Shown here: positions 6,118 through 49,638 of the stretch, piece after piece
Position numbering within the stretch: the stretch's first letter is position 1
Layout of the letters: every line of letters starts with the position of its first letter
NCBI GenBank assembly: GCA_001804315.1
Contig: MHFT01000050.1
Coordinates: 4,600 to 68,599 of the forward strand
Reading direction: 5' to 3'
DNA length: 64,000 bases
From: Omnitrophica bacterium RIFCSPLOWO2_12_FULL_50_11
Lineage (GTDB): Bacteria > Omnitrophota > Omnitrophia > Omnitrophales > Danuiimicrobiaceae
Program-made: the position numbers and the translations under genes
Notes under the pieces: model-generated
Told to the model about the DNA's origin: nothing
What the model saw: only the letters and a program-made list of their open reading frames with translations
The model's database searches: none

Positions 6118-7111
6118 CCAGTACCTCTTGCATCGATTAACGGGGCAGATCGAACGGAGACAATTGAGTTCGACTTATCTGTTCACGGGCCCTGAGTCCG
6201 AAAAGAACAAGCAGCTGGCAATCGCGTTCGCACAAGCACTGAATTGTCCGCGAACTGAGCGTCCCGAGGCGCTGCCGTGCGGCTGCACTGTCTGTCGAAG
6301 GATTGAAGCAGGTGTCCATCCCGATGTGATGTGGTACGGGACCGATGAGGAGTCGAACGCAATCAAAATTTCCCAGGTGCGGGAATTTCGAAGTTTGCTT
6401 GCGTTAAAGCCCTTTGAAGGAAAAGTGAAGGTGTTCATTTTTAACGGTGCCGAACGCCTATCGAGTGAGGCCCAAAACGCGCTCTTAAAGAGTCTAGAAG
6501 AACCGCCGAGAGGGAACGCGATCGTTCTTTTGGTGCCGCAAGCAAACGTCCTTTTTGACACAGTCGTTTCCCGCGCCCTTGAAATTAAAGTACCGCCTTT
6601 TAAGACGGAAGAGATTCGAAACATCCTCGTCGAAGAAGGCGCGGCGGAAAAAGAAAGCGAGTTTTTAGCTCGGATGGCTCAGGGAAAGCTCGCCCGTGCC
6701 CGAGAAGCGCTTCAGGAAGGATGGTTTCACACTAAGAATCAGTGGCTCGATTCGCTCGTCAAAAACCCAATCGCCTTTCTGGACCAATTTGGCGAGTCCT
6801 CCCGCGGTCACATTTCGGTCGTCCTCGCGTTTTTGCTTGAGTGGCTGCGGGATGTTCTCGTTTTTGAGGTTTCGGGCGAGAGTGAATTTCTGGTCCATGC
6901 GGACCGGATCCGGCTCATCGAGTCGTACGCTGAGCGTTATCCGTTTGATTCCGTCTTGGAGCTGTTCGAACGAATCGAGGAGATTCGAAAGGCACTTCGA
7001 GATTACGGAAATCAAAAACTTGCGCTCACGCAGACTCAAATCTTGTGGGGTAAAGTGGTGGGGAATGATCCCCCACCATTTATTCTCAAGAAACCAGATG
7101 GTGGGGGATGA
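6095..7111 (+). CDS. holB: DNA polymerase III delta-prime subunit
   Basis: AAA+ clamp-loader fold. LFTGPESEKNKQLAIAFAQALNC with Cys cluster CPRTERPEALPCGCTVCRR. Placed between tmk and metG as in Firmicutes. The last ~15 codons are encoded by a repeat hairpin. Confidence 0.75.
   Translation: MSSAGLVDQYLLHRLTGQIERRQLSSTYLFTGPESEKNKQLAIAFAQALNCPRTERPEALPCGCTVCRRIEAGVHPDVMWYGTDEESNAIKISQVREFRSLLALKPFEGKVKVFIFNGAERLSSEAQNALLKSLEEPPRGNAIVLLVPQANVLFDTVVSRALEIKVPPFKTEEIRNILVEEGAAEKESEFLARMAQGKLARAREALQEGWFHTKNQWLDSLVKNPIAFLDQFGESSRGHISVVLAFLLEWLRDVLVFEVSGESEFLVHADRIRLIESYAERYPFDSVLELFERIEEIRKALRDYGNQKLALTQTQILWGKVVGNDPPPFILKKPDGGG
7055..7110. repeat. Family-A element at the holB/metG junction: GTGGTGGGGAAT + GATCCCCCACCAT - 18-nt loop - ATGGTGGGGGAT
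   Basis: 12-bp stem 7068-7079/7098-7109, loop TTATTCTCAAGAAACCAG. The loop is the rc-relative of the 2246-2263 loop (both share CTGGTTTCTTG). Confidence 0.85.
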
Positions 7112-8619
7112 GTAAGCCGTTTTACATCACGACCCCGCTTTATTATGTGAATGCGAAGCCGCATATTGGCCACGCGTATACGAATATTGTATGTGATACG
7201 TTTGCACGGTTTCACCGGTTTTTGGGTGAAGAGGTGCGGTTCATGACGGGCACCGACGAACACGGCACTAAAATTGACCGGGCAGCAAAGGACCAAGGCA
7301 AAGATGCAAAGGTCTATGTCGATGAAATGGTTCCGCTTTTTCAGAGCCTTTGGAACCTCCTTGGAATCCAGTATGACTACTTCATCCGGACGACCGATGA
7401 CAACCATCACCAAATCCTTCAAAATATTTTTAAAACATTGGAAGCGAAAGGTGATATTTATCGGGGAAAATACAAAGGTTGGTATTGCACGCCGTGCGAA
7501 TCTTTTTGGACCGAAACGCAGCTTGCGGAAGGCAAGTGTCCCGACTGTCACCGCGACGTCCAGCAGCTCGCAGAGGACAATTATTTTTTCAGACTTTCCA
7601 AGTATCAGTCATGGCTCGTGGGTTACCTCCGCGACTCGCCTAGGTTTGTCTGGCCGGAAACACGCAGGAATGAAATCTTATCGTTCCTCGAACGGCCGCT
7701 TGAAGATCTTTGCATTACTCGCCCTCGCGCACGTCTGACGTGGGGGATTGCGTATCCTTCGTCGCCTGAACACGTGGTTTATGTTTGGTTTGATGCGTTG
7801 GTGAATTATGTGAGCGGTGTCGCTTACTCGAAAGACATGAAACAATTTTCTCGATTTTGGCCGGCTGATCTGCACGTCGTGGGTAAAGACATTTTACGCC
7901 AGCACGCGATTTATTGGCCGATTATGCTGAAGGCGATTGACGTCGAGATGCCGCGGACCGTTTTGGCGCACGGATGGTGGACAATTGAGGGTTCGAAAGT
8001 GTCTAAGTCGAGAGGCAATGTTGTGGACCCGTTTGAGATCGTGAAGCGTTACGGGGCAGATGCATTCCGTTACTATCTGTTGCACGAAGCGAGGCTGGGA
8101 CTCGATGGTTCCTATTCAGAGGATTTACTGGTCGAGCGCTTGAACAGTGACTTGGCGGACGACTTGGGGAACCTCGTGCTGCGGGCGACCTCGATGCTCG
8201 AGCGGTACTTTAGTGGAAGGATTCCTGACGCGACAAGCTCCGCTACTCCTCTGCGCGGGAAACTAGCGAGCATGACCGATCTGGTCAAAAACGCGATGCT
8301 CGGTTTCCAGCCTTATGCAGCACTCGACGCAATTTGGGAAGTCGTGCGCGAAGCGAATCGTTTTGTCGAGCAGAATAAGCCTTGGGTCCTCGCCAAAGAA
8401 AATAAGAAAGAAGAACTGGGCAACTTCTTAGTCGGTTTACTCGAGACGGTTCGGCTTTTGGGCTTGGTCCTCACCTCTTTTCTGCCCTCTACTGCCGAGA
8501 AGATACTGAGTTCATTGGGAATCAACGGACGACCCAGCATCCAAGACATGCAGTGGGGATCCTTAAAAGCCGGCGTGCGCGTAGAGAAGGGCGTACCTTT
8601 GTTTCCGAAAGTTGAGTAA
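7108..8619 (+). CDS. metG: Methionyl-tRNA synthetase (short form)
   Basis: FYITTPLYYVNAKPHIGHAYT (HIGH), KVSKSRGN (KMSKS), CPDCHRD zinc knuckle. ATG overlaps the holB stop (ATGA) inside a repeat arm. Confidence 0.9.
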   Translation: MSKPFYITTPLYYVNAKPHIGHAYTNIVCDTFARFHRFLGEEVRFMTGTDEHGTKIDRAAKDQGKDAKVYVDEMVPLFQSLWNLLGIQYDYFIRTTDDNHHQILQNIFKTLEAKGDIYRGKYKGWYCTPCESFWTETQLAEGKCPDCHRDVQQLAEDNYFFRLSKYQSWLVGYLRDSPRFVWPETRRNEILSFLERPLEDLCITRPRARLTWGIAYPSSPEHVVYVWFDALVNYVSGVAYSKDMKQFSRFWPADLHVVGKDILRQHAIYWPIMLKAIDVEMPRTVLAHGWWTIEGSKVSKSRGNVVDPFEIVKRYGADAFRYYLLHEARLGLDGSYSEDLLVERLNSDLADDLGNLVLRATSMLERYFSGRIPDATSSATPLRGKLASMTDLVKNAMLGFQPYAALDAIWEVVREANRFVEQNKPWVLAKENKKEELGNFLVGLLETVRLLGLVLTSFLPSTAEKILSSLGINGRPSIQDMQWGSLKAGVRVEKGVPLFPKVE

Positions 8620-10511: not shown

Positions 10512-11114
10512 ATGACTTGGATCGTTGGGATTTTTGTTTTTCTGATGAGCATGACGGTGCACGAAGCGTCACACGGGGCAGTCGCTTTTATTCGTGGCGA
10601 CCGAACCGCAAAAGATATGGGACGTTTGACGCTCAATCCGCTGCGGCACATCGATCTCTTCTGGACGGTTTTGTTTCCCGCGCTGCTCTTTGTATCTACG
10701 GCGGGACAGTTTGTGATTGGGATGGCGAAGCCAGTACCCGTCAACTTTGCCAACTTGTATCACCCGAAGCGCGATATGATTTGGGTCGCTTTGGCAGGTC
10801 CTGCGGCGAACATCATTTTTGCCGAATTCCTGCTCTGGGCGCTGCACCTGACCCATCTTCGGGTTTTCCTGCTCGGCGTATACTTTAATCTAGGTCTGGC
10901 GGTGTTTAATTTGCTGCCGATTCCACCCTTAGATGGTTCGCGTATCGCAGCGGGTGTTCTGCCGCGTCCGTGGGATCGCGAGTACCTCAAAATAGAACCA
11001 TACGGTTTTTTAATTGTACTTGTGCTTTATTTTACGGGTGCTTTATATGCGTGGGTGATTCCAGGGATTAACTTATTGGCGTCTTTTTTGGGGATCCCAA
11101 AGTTATATTTATGA
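10512..11114 (+). CDS. Small site-2-protease-family (peptidase M50) zinc metalloprotease
   Basis: HEASH (HExxH) in a TM helix, LPIPPLDGSRI (LDG motif). About 200 aa, all membrane. Stop TGA lies within an ATGATCCCC repeat-like terminus. Confidence 0.7.
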   Translation: MTWIVGIFVFLMSMTVHEASHGAVAFIRGDRTAKDMGRLTLNPLRHIDLFWTVLFPALLFVSTAGQFVIGMAKPVPVNFANLYHPKRDMIWVALAGPAANIIFAEFLLWALHLTHLRVFLLGVYFNLGLAVFNLLPIPPLDGSRIAAGVLPRPWDREYLKIEPYGFLIVLVLYFTGALYAWVIPGINLLASFLGIPKLYL

Positions 11115-11119
11115 TCCCC

Positions 11120-11240
11120 TTTTTGGGTCATCCCGAAATTCGCAAAATCCGAAAAACCCGAAAAAAAGAGAAAGAAAAAAGGAAGCGAAAAAAGAAAGAG
11201 AAAAACGGCTGCTATTTTCTCACCTTAAAAACCTAAGAAA
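11120..11240. repeat. Homopurine (A/G-rich, GAAA-like) low-complexity tract of about 110 nt
   Basis: ccgaaaaacccgaaaaaaagagaaagaaaaaaggaagcgaaaaaagaaagagaaaaacgg; the + strand is almost entirely purines. Confidence 0.8.
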
Positions 11241-11245
11241 TTGGT

Positions 11246-11518
11246 CTAGACAATGGGGTCCACTTCCGATGAACATAAAATATTTGTAAAAAAATAACCT
11301 GTTGGATGCTCCAAAGTTGCATATCGAAAAATACCGCCGGTTACGGCGATGATCAAATCAACGGTTATCCAGTTGCTTCCTTCTTTGAAATATGCAAAAT
11401 CATCCGGTGGGGACAGGGCCGGTCCGGCGATGGGGATGATATTGGCAATGCCCTCAGGCGTATCCGTGTCTCTGATCTCTATAAAGTGACCAGTTCCGTC
11501 TTGAAGTACTCGGTACAT
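11246..11518 (-). CDS. Hypothetical 90-aa protein. Its ATG lies 2 nt downstream of the higA stop, making it a possible third gene of the TA operon
   Basis: ATG at 11518 follows the higA TAA (11521-11523) with a 2-nt gap. No recognisable motifs. A + strand alternative ORF also exists. Confidence 0.3.
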   Translation of the reverse strand: MYRVLQDGTGHFIEIRDTDTPEGIANIIPIAGPALSPPDDFAYFKEGSNWITVDLIIAVTGGIFRYATLEHPTGYFFTNILCSSEVDPIV

Positions 11519-11520
11519 TT

Positions 11521-11862
11521 TTAAGCTGCCTGACGATCTCTTTTTGCAATTGCCTGTCCAATTTTATGCAAGGCCTCTCGGCTAATAGGGATGGCCTGCA
11601 AACGTACTGTATAACCGAGATGGAGCAATATCTTTTCGAGTGTCGCAACACTTGAAAATTCTCCGCTCTCCATTTTGGAAATATGCTGCTGGGATACACC
11701 AATCTTCTCGGCCAATTGTGTCTGATTCAGTTTGTGCTTGATCCGGTAATCAACGATCTTTTTCACAATCTCGAGTTTCTGCTCCTCAAGCTCGTGAAGT
11801 TCCTTAAAATAGGGATCCTTGAGCTTTTCCTGCAGATGCTTGTCAACGCTTTCCGTCTTCAT
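11521..11862 (-). CDS. higA: HigA-like antitoxin, XRE-family HTH protein. Start trimmed to MKTESV at 11862
   Basis: HTH_3 signature KLNQTQLAEKIGVSQQHISKMESGE. SD GGGGTGA precedes the ATG at 11862. Lies immediately downstream of the toxin gene. Confidence 0.7.
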   Translation of the reverse strand: MKTESVDKHLQEKLKDPYFKELHELEEQKLEIVKKIVDYRIKHKLNQTQLAEKIGVSQQHISKMESGEFSSVATLEKILLHLGYTVRLQAIPISREALHKIGQAIAKRDRQAA

Positions 11863-11887
11863 TTTGATCACCCCATTTCTTTCCATC

Positions 11888-12247
11888 TTATTTTTGCTTT
11901 CCTGTTCTTTCCAAAAAGAGCTTCCGTCTCTGAATCGCAACTTCCCTTTCGTTCTTTGGCGTCTTATCGGATTTCTTAATAAAGCCATTTGTGAAAATTG
12001 CCCGGTCCTGATGAAAGAAAAAGTATAAAACCCTTATAGCTCCCTCCCGTCCCTTGAACCTGAGTTCTAATATCTCATCGCCTATATACTTTGCATGGGG
12101 CTGCGGAAGCTTGTGTCCAAACTCTTCCAGCAGACCTACAACGAAGAAGAACTTCCGCTGTGTCTTCGGAACCAGTGAATCGATGAACTCTCGAACCGGC
12201 ACCCAGCTTGAATCCGTGACGAAGTATTCGCATGATACCTTCTTCAC
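11888..12247 (-). CDS. higB: HigB-like toxin (RelE/ParE superfamily, Gp49/DUF891 type). GTG start
   Basis: ELRFKGREGAIRVLYFFF...IFTNGFIKKSDKTPKNEREVAIQRRK matches the HigB-2/Gp49 pattern ELRx..G..RV.YF....L.GF.K..K.P..E...A. Toxin-upstream/antitoxin-downstream order is typical of higBA. Confidence 0.65.
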   Translation of the reverse strand: MKKVSCEYFVTDSSWVPVREFIDSLVPKTQRKFFFVVGLLEEFGHKLPQPHAKYIGDEILELRFKGREGAIRVLYFFFHQDRAIFTNGFIKKSDKTPKNEREVAIQRRKLFLERTGKQK

Positions 12248-12272
12248 TTCACCCCCTGATGTTATATTACAA

Positions 12273-12305
12273 CCATTTAGTAGTATGCCACCATTTAGTT
12301 GTATG
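12273..12305. promoter_or_regulatory. Two 15-nt direct repeats (CCATTTAGTAGTATG / CCATTTAGTTGTATG) overlapping a TTGACA -35 upstream of higB. Candidate operator
   Basis: Tandem repeats separated by CCA, abutting the rc TTGACA at 12304-12309 on the minus strand. Confidence 0.45.
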
Positions 12306-12317
12306 TCAAGTTGGCCA

Positions 12318-12366
12318 TTAAAGTAAAAACCGCCAGATGCCTATAGGAAGGACACCCGGCGGTTCT
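12318..12366 (-). terminator. Rho-independent terminator for the GH130-GT4 operon
   Basis: Minus strand reads AACCGCCGGGTGTCC...CTGGCGGTT (7-bp GC stem) followed by TTTTACTTT, about 140 nt after the GT gene stop. Confidence 0.55.
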
Positions 12367-12505
12367 GTTTCTCTTTCGATTTTTTGATGGGAGAACAATT
12401 GGCTCCCCGTACTGGACGACTTTCGCAACTGGGCACTATCTACCACAGAGACGGGAATCTTCAAAGTCCATTTTGAGGCAGCTATTTGTTAGGAGTAGGA
12501 AATCA

Positions 12506-14761
12506 TCAAGAGTGCTGAATAGCAAGTCTTGCTAAAAGGTAAGAGGTGGTGGACTCCGCTCCCTGATTGAGATTAATTTGACCGTCTCCCACGCCGTCAT
12601 AACACCCGCCCGTGGCCCTGTCATAAACCATCTGATTCAGGCTGTTGTCGCCCAAAAACCAGTTAAAGGCTTCGAGCATGAGTTTGTGATAACTCTCTTT
12701 TCCTGTGACAGAATAGGCGATCTGAAGCGCGCAAGCCATGGCGGAAGCGTCCTCGGGCTGCTGGTCAAAATAGCGGCGCTCACCGGTTTTTTGATGCCAG
12801 CCATCCTGGCCAATCGGCGCGTAGATTCCGTTTAAAAAAGTCTGGGCAATCAAAAAATCCAAAGTCTTGATGCCAGTCTCGAGAAAATCACTATTGCCGG
12901 TTTGCTGATACCCCAAAAGAAGCGCCTCGGGAACAACGGCATTCGAATAGGTTAAATAGGTTTCGAACCATTCCCATTCTTTCGACGAAACTCCCCGGTA
13001 AAGCGAGACCAGGCGGTCACAGTAACGAACCACTCGCTGTTTGAAGTCTTCCCAGTTAATTTCCTTCGGATTTTTTAAAAGTAGGCAAAGTCCTTTCACA
13101 TAAAAGGCGGTGGCGCGTGGGGATTCTATTATCAGAGGATGGTCCATTCTTCTTTTTAATAAGGAAAATGCCCTCTCTCTAAGGGTGTCCGGCAGGGCTG
13201 CTGTAGTTGCCGCGGCTGCGAGCGCCCAGAGTGTCCGGCCATTCGCGTCTTCAAGATTTTCTTTTTGGTTAAACTCATGGTCGATGGTTCTATCCGGCTT
13301 CACGTAATTATAAAAAAGGCCGTTTTCGTCCGAGACAAATTCGATGAAACGCAGGTAAATTTCAATGCGTTTGAGCACTTCATTTTTTCTTTTATCAGGA
13401 GAAAGGGCCTTAATGGCTTTGCCGATCTGCTCCATGTAGGAACACGACACAATAAGCGCACGTGCGTTATCGTCTACGGTATAACCCGAGGAAATGTCAG
13501 GCAAAGAAAGCTGGGCGAATTGAATGATCCCGAAATCGTCGGTCAGACGAAACAAATGGTTTAAGTTACTCCGTGGAATTTTTTTGTACTTACTGACTTT
13601 GGCGATATCGCCGGAGTATTTCGAAAACAATTTTAAATACTCAAGGGCAACATTGTCCCAGGTCATATTGCGGGTCCTAAAATAAGCGTTCTTTCCAAAT
13701 TGTTCCCTGAGCTGGAGGTCTTTCAAAAGCTTGAGAAGAGCCTCGGCATAGGAGGCCGAGTCCCTGAAATTGACTAAGAACCCGGTTTGTGGAGTGATGA
13801 TCTCCTTGGCTTGGGCAAAAGGAGTAGAGATGACGGGTCGGCCGGACCCCAGAGCGTAGGAGAGCGTTCCCGAAACAGTTTGATTCGGATCCAGAGAGGT
13901 TGAAATGTAAATATCCGCGGCCCTCAAAAACTGGAGGAGTTTGTCGAGCGATACGTACTCATTATAGAAACTTACGTTAGAAGAGAGCTTGAGTTCGCGC
14001 ACCTTTTGAATGAGGGACTTCCGGTAGCTTTCGCCTTCTTCTTTTAAGACATTGGGATGAGTCGCACCCAAAACGATATACCTGAGGTCCGGGTAAGCCT
14101 TCACCACCGGAGGCAGGGCCTCCAGAACATATTCAATTCCTTTTCCGCGGCTGAGAAGCCCGAAGGTCAAAAGGATTGTGTTTTTTGAAAAACTTAAAAC
14201 AGACTTGGACTTTGCGCTGGGGGTATAAGGCGCGGGGTGAATACCGTGAAGGATGACCGAAATTTTTTTCCCGTCAATTCCGTATTCTCCGGCCAGGATT
14301 TCTTTTGAACGGTGCGTCATTGCGACTAGACCGCTTGTTTTTTCGGCGATCGAACGCACGATGTTATGAAGTTCGGGATTGGGGGAAGGGAGAACGCTAT
14401 GAAAGGTCACAACCGAAGGCTTTTTGAGTACGTCTAAAAAGGAAAGGATACAAGAACCGTATTTTCCTCCAAAAAGGCCGAATTCATGTTGGATATTGAC
14501 GAGCTTGATGTCATCCGTTTTGTTTATTTTTTCAGCCGTACTGATGAAGCTGGACTCCGAATGCGGGTCGAGCTCGAAAATTACTTCCCGCGGGTAATGG
14601 TAGCGCGACACCGCATCGTTGTTGATCGCGGCGATCCGCGAATCCAGGGCAGTCTCAAACAAGTGATCGATGGCGACCGCGAGGTCTTGAGTAAAAGTCG
14701 CGATCCCGCATTCCCGGGGCGGAAAACTGGACAAATAGACAATCTTTAGGCTTTCTTTCAT
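12506..14761 (-). CDS. Family 4 glycosyltransferase (GT-B) fused to a C-terminal ~330-aa (alpha/alpha)6 six-hairpin-glycosidase-like domain
   Basis: N-terminal IVYLSSFPPRECGIATFTQDL plus a typical GT4 C-terminal Rossmann half (EGFGLP-like region). The C-terminal region has WALAAAAT..., DGW...YFD.QPED, WFLGDN...GGCYDG patterns reminiscent of GH63/GH15-type toroids. Confidence 0.65.
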   Translation of the reverse strand: MKESLKIVYLSSFPPRECGIATFTQDLAVAIDHLFETALDSRIAAINNDAVSRYHYPREVIFELDPHSESSFISTAEKINKTDDIKLVNIQHEFGLFGGKYGSCILSFLDVLKKPSVVTFHSVLPSPNPELHNIVRSIAEKTSGLVAMTHRSKEILAGEYGIDGKKISVILHGIHPAPYTPSAKSKSVLSFSKNTILLTFGLLSRGKGIEYVLEALPPVVKAYPDLRYIVLGATHPNVLKEEGESYRKSLIQKVRELKLSSNVSFYNEYVSLDKLLQFLRAADIYISTSLDPNQTVSGTLSYALGSGRPVISTPFAQAKEIITPQTGFLVNFRDSASYAEALLKLLKDLQLREQFGKNAYFRTRNMTWDNVALEYLKLFSKYSGDIAKVSKYKKIPRSNLNHLFRLTDDFGIIQFAQLSLPDISSGYTVDDNARALIVSCSYMEQIGKAIKALSPDKRKNEVLKRIEIYLRFIEFVSDENGLFYNYVKPDRTIDHEFNQKENLEDANGRTLWALAAAATTAALPDTLRERAFSLLKRRMDHPLIIESPRATAFYVKGLCLLLKNPKEINWEDFKQRVVRYCDRLVSLYRGVSSKEWEWFETYLTYSNAVVPEALLLGYQQTGNSDFLETGIKTLDFLIAQTFLNGIYAPIGQDGWHQKTGERRYFDQQPEDASAMACALQIAYSVTGKESYHKLMLEAFNWFLGDNSLNQMVYDRATGGCYDGVGDGQINLNQGAESTTSYLLARLAIQHS

Positions 14762-14783
14762 TTAATAGACGGACAACCCAACC

Positions 14784-15740
14784 CTACTGGTTTTTCAATT
14801 CTCCCAAGAGTTCATCGATCTCGAGAGATTTCGCCGCGATCCTTTTGTCGGCAGCGCCGTAGTAGATAAAAAGCCGGCCGTCTTTTAGCACGGTGCCTGT
14901 GGGGAAAACCACGTTGTTGACATCGCCCTGCTTTTCCCACGCTTCGACGGGAGAAAACAAGGGCCGTTTCAGACGCCCTATGACTTTGGTCGGATCATGG
15001 AAGTCGAGGAGGGCGGCGGCGTGATAAATCCGGCCCTGGCGGGAGTCTTCTACGCCGTGATAGATCAAAAGCCACCCGTCTTTCGTTTCGATAGGCGGAC
15101 ACCCGCCTCCGATGTTCCTGCTTTCAAACCTGTATTCGGGATCGAGTACAATGTAGTCACCCAAATTCATGAGATAAGCTCTCCAATAATCATCCGTCAA
15201 GTCTTTAAAATCATTGAAATAGATGACTTGTATTCCGGGTAAGACCCGGTGAATTAGCGCGAATTTATTTTTAATTTTCTTGGGAAAGATGAAGGCATCT
15301 TTCTCCCACAGGAGCATGTCGTTACCCTGGCGGTCTCTGATGTAGGAATCGAAGACAAAATAGTTCTCCCGCACCTTGGTCGTCGAGCAGCCAAAAAGGT
15401 TGCTTGCTTCGATGTAAGGAATGCGCGGGGAGATTACTTCGTGTTTTTCGAAATGGACAAGGTCGGTGCTGGTCGCATAAGCAAACAGCGCGTTTTTTCC
15501 GTCATAAACCGTATAAAAAAGATAATAGACCCCGTCTAAAAAAATAATCCGCGGGTCCTCGACACCCATTCTTTCGTAACGGTGTTCGGGAAAAAGGATG
15601 GGCCTCTCCAATCGGGCGACGACCTTGCCCCCTTCCAGCCGGCAGCAGCCTATGGACGAAACCATGTCCACGCGCCGCACGGCCCGGTAAAACAAGTGAG
15701 TCACGCCGTCTTTTTCGATGCAGGCGGGATTTAAAACCAC
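14784..15740 (-). CDS. GH130-family glycoside phosphorylase/hydrolase (beta-mannoside phosphorylase-like, DUF377). GTG start
   Basis: LNPACIEKDGVTHLFYRAV, DGVYYLFYTVYDGKNALFAYATSTDLVHFEK, RLFIYYGAADKRIAAKSLEIDELL. Five-bladed propeller family signature. Confidence 0.75.
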   Translation of the reverse strand: MVLNPACIEKDGVTHLFYRAVRRVDMVSSIGCCRLEGGKVVARLERPILFPEHRYERMGVEDPRIIFLDGVYYLFYTVYDGKNALFAYATSTDLVHFEKHEVISPRIPYIEASNLFGCSTTKVRENYFVFDSYIRDRQGNDMLLWEKDAFIFPKKIKNKFALIHRVLPGIQVIYFNDFKDLTDDYWRAYLMNLGDYIVLDPEYRFESRNIGGGCPPIETKDGWLLIYHGVEDSRQGRIYHAAALLDFHDPTKVIGRLKRPLFSPVEAWEKQGDVNNVVFPTGTVLKDGRLFIYYGAADKRIAAKSLEIDELLGELKNQ

Positions 15741-16000
15741 CTGATTTTCAAATGCGTTTTCCGAACTTTCGAGGATGATGCCCTCGCTTTTGATTTAGAT
15801 CATGGGCCTCCAAATGCCGCCTGCCTGTCGGCAGGCAGGGGTTCAATAAAAAAGCGCTACCGGATTATACTCCGGCAACACCTTGGGATTATGGGTATTG
15901 TAATAATCTCGTCGGGATGGACGCCAAACGAACCACGCATGATCAATGGGCATCATTACTTATAACAATGGAAAAGTGGCGTGGTGCCCACGGAGCGAAG

Positions 16001-17290
16001 TTAATCGAGCCTGTCCTTTAAAACATATCCCGTTGTCCTGCCGTCACCGATTTTTTGAATAAGGCCCGCTTCGAGCAATCGGTTGAAATCCTTGCGCGCT
16101 GTTTCGTCGGAGCATTGATTGAGCTTGCAATACTTCCTGGTTGTCATTTTCTCCGGATGTTCGAGCATCCACTGAAGCGCTTTAATTTGTTTCTTGTCAA
16201 GTTGGGCTTGGGCCTTTTGGCTTAAAACATCGCGGATGTCCCTGACCTTTGTTTCTTTCGCAATCTCGATCTGAACGTTTTTTAATTGCTCCGCCAGAGC
16301 TGTCAGGTAATAAAGAATAAAAAACGTTGCATCGCTGTCATGGGCCTCGGCATTCTGGATAGCACGGTAATATTCACCGCGATGATGGTCAAAATAATCC
16401 GATGGGACAAGGAAATTGATAAATTGATAGCCCTGCTTCATCAGATACAAATTTGATAATGCTCGGGCCGAGCGGCCGTTGCCATCATCAAAAGGATGAA
16501 CATGCACGAAATAAAGATGCACAAACGCGGCCTTTATCAGAGGGTGATTTTCAAAAGTATCATTCATCCACTGAACGTAAGAATCCATCATTCGCATCAC
16601 TTCGGATGCCGGAGGGCCTTCATAAACAACTTGCCCTTGGCCGTCTACAACATAGATGGGGCCTTTACGGTACCCCCCGACGGTAATGGGTCTTTTCTTA
16701 TGGGTGTTCCTTACAAGAATCTTGTGAAGCTCGCAGATCATTTCATGGCTGAAAGGATTTGCGCTTTGCCCACGGATATATTCTAAGGCGTCCCTGTTAT
16801 TGACGATCATTTGAAGACTTTCATCTCCATAATCTTCCCGGGAAGGTTTGTTCAAGTGGAGCAAAGCCACTTCCAGACTCGTTACGGCCCCTTCAATATG
16901 GCTGGAGTAATAAGCTTCCTTTTTTTCGGTTTCAGACGCTAGACGATCGAGAAATTTTTTCGGAAGCTTAAGCGAAGCTAAAAATCCCCTGTTCCTTTCG
17001 ATCTCGGAGATGAGGGCCAGAAGAGTTGGGGGCAGAACAAACCAAAAAGGTTTTCCTTTTTTATCAAGAAGATCCAGACGGTTTGCCTTGCGGAGACGGT
17101 CTTCTTCAACCTCTCGCCATTTTTCGGGGCTGTATTTGGCCAGGATTTTTTGTTTTTCGAAGTAATCTTCCATAAAAGTTAATCGCCAACTATTCGCCAA
17201 TAATATACCCGGTTTCTTGAGGATTGTCCAGAGGGGATTTTTACGAATTCGTAGTTCGAAATCGCCAATAAAACGCCAATTATTCGCCAA
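16001..17290 (-). CDS. Class II Fic-family AMPylator (Fic/DOC) with C-terminal winged HTH. Likely true start MEDYFEK at 17173
   Basis: Canonical Fic motif HPFDDGNGRSARAL; N-terminal inhibitory motif SSHIEG, i.e. (S/T)xxxE(G/N); C-terminal wHTH. Confidence 0.85.
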   Translation of the reverse strand: MANNWRFIGDFELRIRKNPLWTILKKPGILLANSWRLTFMEDYFEKQKILAKYSPEKWREVEEDRLRKANRLDLLDKKGKPFWFVLPPTLLALISEIERNRGFLASLKLPKKFLDRLASETEKKEAYYSSHIEGAVTSLEVALLHLNKPSREDYGDESLQMIVNNRDALEYIRGQSANPFSHEMICELHKILVRNTHKKRPITVGGYRKGPIYVVDGQGQVVYEGPPASEVMRMMDSYVQWMNDTFENHPLIKAAFVHLYFVHVHPFDDGNGRSARALSNLYLMKQGYQFINFLVPSDYFDHHRGEYYRAIQNAEAHDSDATFFILYYLTALAEQLKNVQIEIAKETKVRDIRDVLSQKAQAQLDKKQIKALQWMLEHPEKMTTRKYCKLNQCSDETARKDFNRLLEAGLIQKIGDGRTTGYVLKDRLD

Positions 17291-17294
17291 GCTG
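17181..17294. promoter_or_regulatory. Five TTGGCGA(A/T) direct repeats in two clusters at 11-nt spacing, flanking a perfect 10-bp palindrome ACGAATTCGT, upstream of or overlapping the 5' end of fic
   Basis: CGCCAA at 17184, 17195, 17263, 17274 and 17285 (+ strand), spaced 11 nt within each cluster; palindrome at 17243-17252. Confidence 0.5.
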
Positions 17295-17436
17295 TTGTCA
17301 AATTTATTGCCAGGTTTTTAGCGCCCTTACAAAGAAAAAAGGTGAAGCCGCTTTGATTCGCCTTCACCTTTACTTTTGGCTCGAAAAGTTCGAGCCCTAT
17401 AGGGCTCCCCGGGCAGGGCTCGAACCAAGGTCACTC

Positions 17437-17474
17437 GAAAAATAAAAGGGGTTGCACTTCCGCACAACCCCTTT
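17437..17474 (-). terminator. Rho-independent terminator of the DEAD-box helicase gene
   Basis: Minus strand reads GGGGTTGTGCGGAAGTGCAACCCC hairpin followed by TTTTATTTTT, about 100 nt after the helicase stop. Confidence 0.7.
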
Positions 17475-17572
17475 GCGGTTTCTCCCCGTATGGGCGGGCT
17501 TTTTTCAGTCCCGCGTAGTTTGCGGGAACGACTTTCGCAACCGGCTGATATTCAAAGGCCGTCCTAAGCGAA

Positions 17573-18802
17573 TCAGTGCCTTCGCCCAAAGCGCCGCCGC
17601 GGTTTGAAACTCCGTCGGGTGGCACTAAAACCGCGGCTTCCTGTGAATGGACGGGGAGCCGGGAAAGATTCTTTGGGCAGCTCGGGATGTTCGGAAATCG
17701 GAAGCGCAACGCGCATCAACCGTTCGATAGCCCGTACTTCTTTTTCCTGCTCCGGCATGGCGAAGGATATGGCATGACCCGGATTGCCCGCTCGCCCCGT
17801 ACGTCCAATACGATGAATATAGTTTTCCGAATCTTCGGGAAGGTCGTAATTGATCACCAGCTCAATTCCCCTTACATCAATGCCGCGTGAGGCGATGTCT
17901 GTCGCTACGAGGACACGGTACCTACCGTTTCGGAAACCTTCGAGCGCCTCGCGCCGCTGGGACAGGGAGCGGTTGGAATGAATTTCCGCAGTTCGATGGC
18001 CGATGCTGCGAATCACAGCCGTGATTTTTCTCGCGCCGGCCTTGGTCCGTGAAAAAATGAGCACAGAACCGTGGTATTGCGCCAGGATTTTTTCGAGGAG
18101 CTTACGCTTGGATTCCTTGCGCACCACAAAAAGTTCGTGAGTCACTTTTTCTGCGGCGGTTCCGGATTTGGCGATTTCCACTTGTACAGGCAGCTTCATA
18201 TAAGACGCTGCAAGCCGCGTGATGGCCTCAGGCATCGTCGCAGAAAAAAGCATGGTCTGCCGGTCACGGGGTACAAACCGTAAAATTCTTTGGATCTGAG
18301 GGGCAAAACCCATGTCAAGCATCCGATCCGCCTCGTCCAGTACCAGCACATGCACGTCATTCAAAGTGACGTTGCGTTGCTCTATGTGATCGATCAGCCG
18401 GCCGGGTGTCGCGATTAAAATTCGGGGGTGATGCCTGAGTTCCTGGATTTGCAGATGCATAGAAGCCCCGCCGATCAGCACCGCCATTTTGACTTTTGGC
18501 ATTACCCTGATCAGGTGGTGATGCACTTGCACGGCCAGTTCACGGGTTGGAACAAGTACCAAGCCCCGGCCGCCGGTTTGGGCAAGGCGTTGAAGCATCG
18601 GGATACCGAAGGCGAGGGTTTTTCCCGTACCTGTTTGCGCAATGCCAATCAGATCCTTGCCCTCTAGTGCAATGGGGATGGCCTTTTGCTGAATGGGTGT
18701 GGGGGTGTGAAATCTAATGTGATGAAGCGCATCCAGGAATTGGGGTGCAATGCCCAGGTCGTAAAACCCCGATCCGGGAGGTGCCGTCAGATGTGTGGTC
18801 AT
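17573..18802 (-). CDS. DEAD-box ATP-dependent RNA helicase
   Basis: AQTGTGKT (motif I), LVLDEADRMLDMGF (DEAD), SAT, HRIGRTGRAG (motif VI), basic C-terminal tail. Confidence 0.9.
   Translation of the reverse strand: MTTHLTAPPGSGFYDLGIAPQFLDALHHIRFHTPTPIQQKAIPIALEGKDLIGIAQTGTGKTLAFGIPMLQRLAQTGGRGLVLVPTRELAVQVHHHLIRVMPKVKMAVLIGGASMHLQIQELRHHPRILIATPGRLIDHIEQRNVTLNDVHVLVLDEADRMLDMGFAPQIQRILRFVPRDRQTMLFSATMPEAITRLAASYMKLPVQVEIAKSGTAAEKVTHELFVVRKESKRKLLEKILAQYHGSVLIFSRTKAGARKITAVIRSIGHRTAEIHSNRSLSQRREALEGFRNGRYRVLVATDIASRGIDVRGIELVINYDLPEDSENYIHRIGRTGRAGNPGHAISFAMPEQEKEVRAIERLMRVALPISEHPELPKESFPAPRPFTGSRGFSATRRSFKPRRRFGRRH

Positions 18803-49564: not shown

Positions 49565-49638
<74 letters not shown>

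Follow-up and report, generated by a model that had tools for sequence, protein, structure and literature searches.

The 64,000-nucleotide stretch analyzed here (the window; all positions are counted from its first letter) belongs to contig MHFT01000050.1 of Omnitrophica bacterium RIFCSPLOWO2_12_FULL_50_11 (assembly GCA_001804315.1). Between a gene for an M50 peptidase and one for a DEAD-box helicase it carries five genes on the minus strand, which encode, in order of transcription, a Fic protein, a GH130 family enzyme, a 751-residue protein that joins a GT4 domain to an (alpha/alpha)6 barrel, a HigB-like toxin and a helix-turn-helix (HTH) antitoxin. This minus-strand block had been described in an initial annotation made from the sequence alone, and its genes and coordinates are borne out by the open reading frames (ORFs) and by Pfam. 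The block is probably, although far from certainly, made up of three independent units on one strand: a vertically kept mannoside operon consisting of GH130 and the fusion gene, a Fic cassette of the SoFic type, and a higBA cassette. The features of the operon are as follows (dG is the folding free energy).

14784-15803, minus strand: gene for a GH130 enzyme of the beta-1,2-mannoside phosphorylase type, broken by a stop at codon 3 (Pfam, PDB, Foldseek, signature residues)
15795-15797, minus strand: in-frame TAA, replacing the AAA (Lys) found at GH130 codon 3 in relatives (comparison with orthologues)
15817-15838, minus strand: 9-bp GC-rich hairpin directly 5' of the GGAGG Shine-Dalgarno sequence of GH130 (dG -18.5 kcal/mol, z -4.5)
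15851-15884, minus strand: hairpin with a GTATAAT loop and a U-run, predicted to end Fic transcription, which may also carry the -10 element of the pair (dG -21.4 kcal/mol, z -5.7)
12506-14761, minus strand: 751-residue fusion of a divergent GT4 (GT-B) domain and a C-terminal (alpha/alpha)6 barrel (ORF, Pfam)
13610-14761, minus strand: GT4 domain, residues 1-384 (PF00534, PF13439)
12509-13609, minus strand: (alpha/alpha)6 six-hairpin domain, residues 385-751, outside any described family (AlphaFold2 (AF2) model)
13856-13882, minus strand: QTVSGTLSY, that is Q294-x7-Y302, replacing EX7E (alignment to PimA and MshA)
12321-12366, minus strand: intrinsic terminator of the GH130-fusion operon (stem 12326-12366, then UUUUU; dG -26.5 kcal/mol, z -5.3)

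The GH130 and GT4 fusion pair

The 318-residue ORF at 14784-15740 is the remnant of a 339-codon gene that begins at ATG 15803, after the GGAGG. From this ATG the frame reads Met-Ile-stop and then continues, in frame, through the conserved N-terminus (IKSEGIILESSEN...). The N-terminus is intact in all 48 orthologues that lie next to a fusion gene, and among these the TAA is unique to the window; the same codon-3 TAA is present in a second public assembly (contig L171; L numbers designate the related loci and contigs compared). The premature stop had been overlooked in the initial annotation, as had the true start of Fic and the non-canonical motif of the GT4 domain described below.

The assignment of the enzyme to GH130, already proposed in the initial annotation, is confirmed by a match to PF04041 (E 1e-44, 153 bits). 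The best PDB match is Teth514_1788 (E 1.5e-45), and the top matches are beta-1,2-oligomannan and beta-1,2-mannobiose phosphorylases. The AF2 model (predicted local distance difference test, pLDDT, 86) is a five-bladed beta-propeller that Foldseek aligns to Teth514_1788 with an E value of 1e-26 and a template modeling (TM) score of 0.82; the Foldseek TM scores were 0.82-0.83. Within this family, a proton-donor Asp, an Arg/His phosphate pair and a Glu/Lys pair at the +1 subsite form the pattern of beta-1,2 phosphorylases (PMC7660257, Table 2), and further +1-subsite criteria for the beta-1,2 linkage are available (PMC12814180). The same table separates phosphorylases from hydrolases by the Asp and the Arg/His pair in combination with the lack of a second carboxylate base and of a signal peptide. 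Mapping by motif alignment to Teth514_1788 identified the proton donor as D62, the phosphate pair as R165/H228, and the +1 residues as R19, E61 (immediately before D62), K147 and D298; the N-terminus is not hydrophobic. At the level of sequence, the residue signature of beta-1,2-mannoside phosphorylases is complete in GH130.

A sequence homologous to the 15851-15884 hairpin lies upstream of GH130 in L089 and L092. Because it is common to these relatives, which lack Fic at this spot, the hairpin belongs to the GH130 upstream region, although it also is the second of two strong hairpins found 3' of Fic.

At NCBI, GH130 of this clade is named "pesticidal protein Cry7Aa", apparently a misannotation, and in public annotation the fusion is called only "glycosyltransferase"; at JGI, GH130 appears as a GH43/DUF377 hydrolase and once as a beta-1,2-mannobiose phosphorylase. 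Some GH130 orthologues (L100, about 6237-6716; L003; L116) have a low-complexity repeat insertion (RPESRGLASD...SQSH...) immediately before a conserved segment, NKFAL(I/V)HR.

The second gene was predicted in the initial annotation to encode a GT4 domain joined to a glycosidase-like barrel and to end at its own terminator, all of which stood. Homologues of the fusion align over its full length, at 62-83% identity in Omnitrophota and about 55% in Elusimicrobiota and Chloroflexota. Both Rossmann halves of the GT4 domain are matched above the Pfam cut-offs (PF00534, 70.8 bits with a cut-off of 26.4; PF13439, 31.4 bits with a cut-off of 28.5), and the closest PDB relatives are MshA, PimA, sucrose-phosphate synthase and archaeal GlgA (E 1e-9 to 1e-6). 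The donor-binding motif is a different matter: EX7E is missing, and Q294 and Y302 align opposite its two Glu residues in PimA and MshA. Across 21 full-length homologues, conservation of the resulting QX7Y motif is 90% or more. In the phosphate loop G-R-x4-K-G (14138-14161), K207 is kept, the canonical Arg is replaced by Leu, and another Arg stands two residues before the Lys. Both the Leu-for-Arg replacement and QX7Y are nearly invariant across the fusion family. In GT4 enzymes the first Glu of EX7E contacts the donor sugar and the second the ribose, and the weight of each differs from enzyme to enzyme (PMC8760489).

No Pfam family covers the C-terminal domain (residues 385-751) as its own. 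Its AF2 model (pLDDT 81; predicted TM score, pTM, 0.87) is an (alpha/alpha)6 barrel, so the glycosidase-clan fold anticipated in the initial annotation is real, but it corresponds to no named glycoside hydrolase family: scores fall below the cut-offs (GH88, 18.4 bits with a cut-off of 26.6; GH9, 15.8 bits), and individual members of the domain family scatter across the six-hairpin clan (C5-epim_C, GH88, GH127, GH76). The family profile matches 7TEM (YPO2471) at 2.9e-26, and this uncharacterized protein is the only close structural relative of the barrel. D430, D431, D722 and E736 are invariant, and no mapping of them onto a characterized active site was obtained. The barrel is outside described enzyme families and need not be a hydrolase. 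The family comprises 3498 cluster representatives at E<=1e-3, many of them fused, so that the architecture is not rare, in contrast to its first description as unusual. Kinship of the domain with a GH100/GDE_C-like protein that lies beside the fusion in Chloroflexota-like loci (L006) was also considered, and BLASTP gave no significant match.

The two genes are kept together. GH130 lies directly upstream of the fusion, on the same strand and across a short gap, in 48 of the 65 loci with enough upstream sequence, and 11 further loci have a distant GH130 elsewhere in the flank. Paired loci span Omnitrophota, Elusimicrobiota and others, and include a more distant clade. GH130 is the sole widely recurrent neighbor of the fusion (63 of 85 loci), the next families occurring in at most 13. 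A DEAD-box helicase gene, 41-68% identical to that of the window, is found 0.2-3.3 kb from the pair in L146, L116, L091 and L145. Identity to the best relative is 83% for the fusion, compared to 76% for M50 and 64% for TatD. The sugar pair is a core module in a genome of low synteny, and probably an old one, kept vertically in Omnitrophota and several other phyla.

In the Chloroflexota-like loci (L006, L127-L133) the sugar cluster around the fusion is larger and of another kind: it comprises a PfkB kinase, a PIG-L-like protein, a second GT4, a GH100/GDE_C/MGH1-like hydrolase and a GH130 of 550-600 residues with an N-terminal extension.

Accessory cassettes and the origin of the block

The remaining features of the block and its two bordering genes are listed here.

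16001-17173, minus strand: Fic, 390 residues, with SSHIEG at 16889-16906, the Fic motif HPFDDGNGRSAR at 16463-16498 and a C-terminal winged HTH (Pfam Fic, Fic_N, HTH_DeoR)
17181-17294, minus strand: Fic promoter with five TTGGCG at an 11-nt phase, three upstream of the -35 TGGACA (17225-17230) and two between the -10 TATATT (17202-17207) and the ATG (same layout in L167-L170)
15913-15961, minus strand: 49-nt dispersed element in the Fic 3' region (copies in L002, L144, L167)
11888-12247, minus strand: HigB-like (Gp49/RelE-fold) toxin gene (PF05973, 83 bits; G+C content (GC) 0.447)
11521-11886, minus strand: HTH (Xre-type) antitoxin gene, likely start ATG 11886, placed by its position beside the toxin stop (PF01381, 46 bits; GC 0.437)
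12282-12309, minus strand: higBA promoter-like site, a consensus match (TTGACA, 16 nt, TG-CATACT; 10/12 matches, extended -10)
10512-11114, plus strand: M50 peptidase gene (ORF list and Pfam)
17573-18802, minus strand: DEAD-box helicase gene (ORF list and Pfam)

The Fic gene had been read as a 429-residue ORF (16001-17290), which begins within its own operator repeats; the true start is ATG 17173, giving 390 residues in agreement with homologues of 387-390 residues that are up to 91% identical. An intact Fic motif and an N-terminal inhibitory helix of the class II type had been claimed, and both motifs are there. HPFDDGNGRSAR, at residues 226-237 of 390, conforms to HxFx(D/E)GNGRxxR, and SSHIEG, at residues 90-95, conforms in sequence to the inhibitory (S/T)xxxE(G/N) within the Fic_N match, N-terminal to the Fic core. 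The PADLOC model of SoFic matches residues 51-388 (E 9e-60). Copies 81-82% identical occur in metagenome-assembled genomes (MAGs) labeled Deltaproteobacteria and Bdellovibrionota, with a partial copy in Auribacterota, and the genomic context of Fic is different in each genome examined. A plasmid search with Fic returned only matches below 60% identity (the best listed, 32%) and no plasmid source.

Upstream of Fic, TTGGCG-N5-TTGGCG is observed 3 times (0.03 expected), so the repeats noticed in the initial annotation are real; they are operator-like, not the replication iterons to which they had been likened. The layout of promoter and repeats is conserved with Fic homologues in four unrelated contexts (L167-L170), including MAGs from other phyla. 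Most likely the repeats serve as operators for the winged HTH of Fic itself. No description of a phased TTGGCG array was found in the literature. The cassette, self-contained between the helicase and the pair, would be autoregulated, its C-terminal winged HTH probably binding all five repeats, and any role in defense is putative.

A second, unrelated Fic (HPFGDGNGRTARL, 24% identical, with a C-terminal HTH) occupies positions 131-748 of the Omnitrophota contig L138, with GH130 68 nt downstream of it. That this spot holds two different Fic genes may point to an insertion hot spot or a functional link. The 49-nt element has copies of 94% identity in L002 (5535-5583) and L144 (2383-2431) and a partial copy upstream of Fic in L167 (5808-5880). 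It encodes a short peptide (PIDHAWFVWRPSR) in small ORFs, occupies unrelated intergenic sites in relatives and has no Rfam match.

The higBA-type toxin-antitoxin cassette would be a unit of its own, beginning beyond the operon terminator, where its promoter-like site lies. Its genes are small and adjacent, with the toxin upstream, and abut at 11886-11888, the arrangement expected of HigBA. Fic and higBA were said to be neighbors and are not, since the 3.2-kb sugar pair stands between them. Both cassettes are ordinary.

The initial annotation took the entire block for a horizontally acquired accessory islet, and its sugar genes for a means of producing and recycling a compatible solute, mannosyl- or glucosyl-based, of the mannosylglycerate (MG) or mannosylglucosylglycerate (MGG) type; we consider this reading very improbable. 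It is true that the block is slightly AT-richer (GC 0.469) than its surroundings (0.504-0.508), and that synteny with the nearest relatives breaks right after M50: TatD-CAAX-M50 is syntenic in L007-L012, and nothing downstream of M50 is. The AT-richness, however, comes from Fic (GC 0.45, z -2.2) and higBA (0.44-0.45) only, with z from -2.2 to -3.0 over these genes. In the comparison of GC and codon usage, GH130 (GC 0.50) equals the window mean and the fusion gene is native (GC 0.478, z -1.0; third-position GC, z +0.2; codon-usage distance, z -0.5). Neither an integrase nor a tRNA appears in the block by ORF list and tRNA scan, the sole tRNA of the window being at 49565, and there is no flanking duplication. 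Most of the related loci examined have the pair, whose divergence keeps pace with that of housekeeping genes. An empty site with M50 adjoining the helicase was sought in the relatives, and none is in the data.

As to the solute, a glycosyltransferase, a phosphorylase and a six-hairpin domain could in principle run such a cycle, and the GH100/GDE_C/MGH1-like hydrolase of the Chloroflexota-like clade is a neighbor that would suit it. Nevertheless, no glycerate-pathway or phosphatase gene was seen among the neighbors examined in about 85 related loci, and the GH130 signature points to beta-1,2-mannosides, unlike the alpha-mannosyl bonds that MG and MGG carry; the proposal received no direct support. 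Only Fic and higBA behave as accessory cassettes: both have a deviating composition, and Fic is common to other phyla at about 81-82% identity.

Several further observations concern the surroundings of the block. The sugar pair sits at the meeting point of two convergent blocks, and the wider flanks are housekeeping genes (IspDF, GltX, CysS, Tmk, HolB, MetG and TatD on one side; Maf, TypA, ThiL, TsaD and Alr on the other). The top matches of all genes are Omnitrophota MAGs. A 17-nt direct repeat (12416-12432 and 17528-17544) brackets Fic, GH130 and the fusion and was rejected as an island boundary: the motif is dispersed (L002, L001) and forms no target-site duplication. This intergenic motif, GTTGCGAAAGTCGTCC...GGGGAG, is found 3' of the fusion and 3' of the helicase in the window, with copies in L002 (12404, 3' of the fusion), L001 (8836, upstream of GH130) and L171 (4288). 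Between the helicase stop and the Fic promoter (17338-17474) stand three strong hairpins in series: 17445-17474 with a T-run, the palindrome 17388-17425, and 17338-17371 with a T-run. Scanning 11100-17700 against Rfam gave no match at E<=1. The ORF at 11246-11518 was not treated as a gene, as it has no PADLOC match and a terminator-like site inside.

Proposed function and alternative explanations

Gene structure, folds, motif content, conservation, pairing and composition were established directly, and from them we infer substrates and direction of flux. GH130 and the fusion would form a two-gene operon with its own upstream -10-like element, Shine-Dalgarno sequence and terminator. The fusion has no hydrophobic segment (maximum 19-residue Kyte-Doolittle value, KD19, 1.21), and for lack of such a segment both products are predicted to be soluble and cytoplasmic. 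The pair likely serves the synthesis and breakdown of an intracellular oligosaccharide or glycoside that contains mannose. GH130 would split beta-1,2-mannosidic bonds reversibly with phosphate, yielding alpha-mannose-1-phosphate; the GT-B domain of the fusion would make or extend the acceptor; and the six-hairpin domain may trim, hydrolyze or isomerize the product. A cytoplasmic cycle of mannoside synthesis and degradation is the most likely function because a phosphorylase with the beta-1,2 signature, a GT-B domain and the barrel, all cytoplasmic, are kept together with no transporters. In this particular genome, GH130 may not be made, or may be made from the internal GTG 15740 without its first beta-strand.

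A number of points weigh against this cycle or against vertical descent of the operon. GH130 scores 188 bits with the NCBIfam equivalog for beta-1,2-mannobiose phosphorylase, below its cut-off of 450. It also has a helical insertion of about 40 residues absent from Teth514_1788, and therefore its acceptor may not be mannose. The GT4 domain is non-canonical by sequence, with both EX7E Glu residues and the canonical Arg gone; its donor may be something other than a nucleotide sugar, or it may be no transferase at all. The six-hairpin fold also includes epimerases and isomerases. In the related loci examined, the pair has no linked gene for the GDP-mannose pathway or for a transporter, and a literature search (Omnitrophota with GH130, YPO2471, GH130/GT4 fusions) found no description or assay of these GH130, GT4 and six-hairpin clades. 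The flanks of the pair differ in almost every relative, which leaves room for mobility of the pair. Finally, between GIY-YIG and the middle of GH130 (about 15115) the window and L171 agree to within 0-1 differences across about 6.4 kb. Beyond this point (L171 about 6715-7181) they are 13-20% divergent, in the 3' third of GH130 and the beginning of the fusion, where L171 ends; this 3' part of L171 is closer to L002 than to the window. The break at about 15115 could reflect recombination, or else one of the two assemblies is chimeric there. Should it be that of the window, the adjacency of its two flanks is an artifact and the description of each gene is unchanged.

The interruption of GH130 invites the explanation that the module is decaying in this strain, with GH130 a pseudogene and the module without a current function. 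We regard this as rather unlikely. The TAA has no counterpart among the 48 orthologues, the 21 residues lost include a confidently modeled beta-strand (model residues 2-9, pLDDT about 91), and GH130 further lacks one residue (YHA-AALLD) and has private changes at 4 of 133 invariant sites, the joint highest of 29 sequences. That excess is slight and not decisive for decay. The remaining 318 codons are intact, with all signature residues present; re-initiation at ATC 15794 or GTG 15740 is possible; and the fusion remains fully constrained (of 255 otherwise invariant sites, 0 have private changes). Decay would in any case concern this strain, and two other explanations concern the family. Characterized GH130 clusters are mostly catabolic (PMC4264767, PMC7660257), and together with the degenerate catalytic motifs of the GT4 domain this would fit a salvage pathway for imported beta-mannosides, such as those of host or prey glycans: a six-hairpin hydrolase and GH130 would cut them, and the GT4 domain would be a binding or regulatory pseudo-enzyme. 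Such a pathway seems improbable, as the related loci examined show neither a transporter nor an extracellular glycosidase linked with the pair, and as the GT4 domain is conserved like the rest of the protein (55-86% identity across loci, many invariant motifs), which argues for a working active site.

The same degenerate motifs might instead reflect a change of donor. The GT4 domain could be a retaining glycoside phosphorylase that uses the alpha-mannose-1-phosphate released by GH130, the two enzymes exchanging mannose-1-phosphate and interconverting beta-mannosides and an alpha-linked product at no ATP cost, with the barrel, as a new family, processing the product. The loss of the second EX7E Glu, which normally binds the nucleotide ribose (PMC8760489), the change of the phosphate-loop Arg to Leu with the Lys kept, the near invariance of these features and the strict pairing of the GT4 fusion with an enzyme producing mannose-1-phosphate would all agree with this phosphate relay, and GT4 includes at least one natural phosphorylase (PMC10913872). 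The relay is deduced from sequence, and the importance of each Glu varies among GT4 enzymes; we give it a slim chance. If true, it would provide Omnitrophota and several other uncultured phyla with a bacterial counterpart of the mannogen reserve of Leishmania, independent of nucleotide sugars.

The pair is of interest beyond this genome. Apart from housekeeping genes, few genes seen in these loci of a large uncultured phylum are conserved so well, and the pair recurs in Elusimicrobiota, Chloroflexota and others. Its characterization could establish a new family of six-hairpin enzymes, assign a function to YPO2471/7TEM, account for a GT4 lineage without EX7E, and reveal whether an intracellular mannoside reserve is kept by these very small bacteria. 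For the window itself the outcome is more modest: a core operon flanked by two small accessory cassettes, its phosphorylase gene interrupted.

Comparison with known systems

The closest known relatives of the phosphorylase are Teth514_1788 and Teth514_1789 of Thermoanaerobacter sp. X-514 (GH130_6). Teth514_1788 is the best match of GH130 in both sequence (32% identity) and fold, and has the same catalytic, phosphate-binding and +1 residues. The Thermoanaerobacter cluster also encodes a GT4 alpha-mannosyltransferase (PMC4264767), so that a GT4 is present in both systems. It is, however, a cluster of 12 genes, among them those for an ABC transporter, a GH5 enzyme and a mannose-1-phosphate guanylyltransferase, whereas the window has only two genes. 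Moreover, the GT4 of the window is fused to a six-hairpin domain and lacks EX7E, and its GH130 differs in the insertion of about 40 residues and the score below the equivalog cut-off.

A model for a cytoplasmic mannoside reserve cycle is the mannogen of Leishmania. Mannogen is an intracellular beta-1,2-mannan made and phosphorolyzed by five-bladed propellers related to GH130 (GT108; PMC10913872), and one of them, MTP4, is in the Foldseek list of the window GH130 (E 1.4e-9). These enzymes are of another family, GT108, and eukaryotic, and have no GT4/six-hairpin partner.

The mycobacterial methylmannose polysaccharide system, in which the mannosyltransferase ManT works with the hydrolase MmpH, is a precedent for an intracellular cycle. 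It differs in its separate genes, the presence of methyltransferases and the lack of a GH130; the sequences share about 9% identity, and MmpH does not rank first in fold. That place belongs to YPO2471 of Yersinia pestis (PDB 7TEM), a structural-genomics protein for which a literature search found no paper; unlike the barrel, it is stand-alone and annotated as exported, and the two are about 20% identical. The GH63 hydrolases of mannosylglycerate and glucosylglycerate, also (alpha/alpha)6 proteins, are a remote match that ranked 60th for the barrel. No gene for solute synthesis was seen linked to the pair, and the linkage chemistry of these hydrolases is mismatched with that of GH130.

Outside the operon, Fic resembles SoFic, a class II Fic AMP-transferase listed in PADLOC as a single-gene anti-phage system, in its full-length model match, its Fic and inhibitory motifs and its C-terminal winged HTH. 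It differs in its score with the NCBIfam SoFic equivalog (79 bits, with a cut-off of 550) and in the phased TTGGCG array, and a defense role of the window Fic is putative. In comparison with all these systems, the GH130-fusion module is an uncharacterized variant assembled from known kinds of enzyme.

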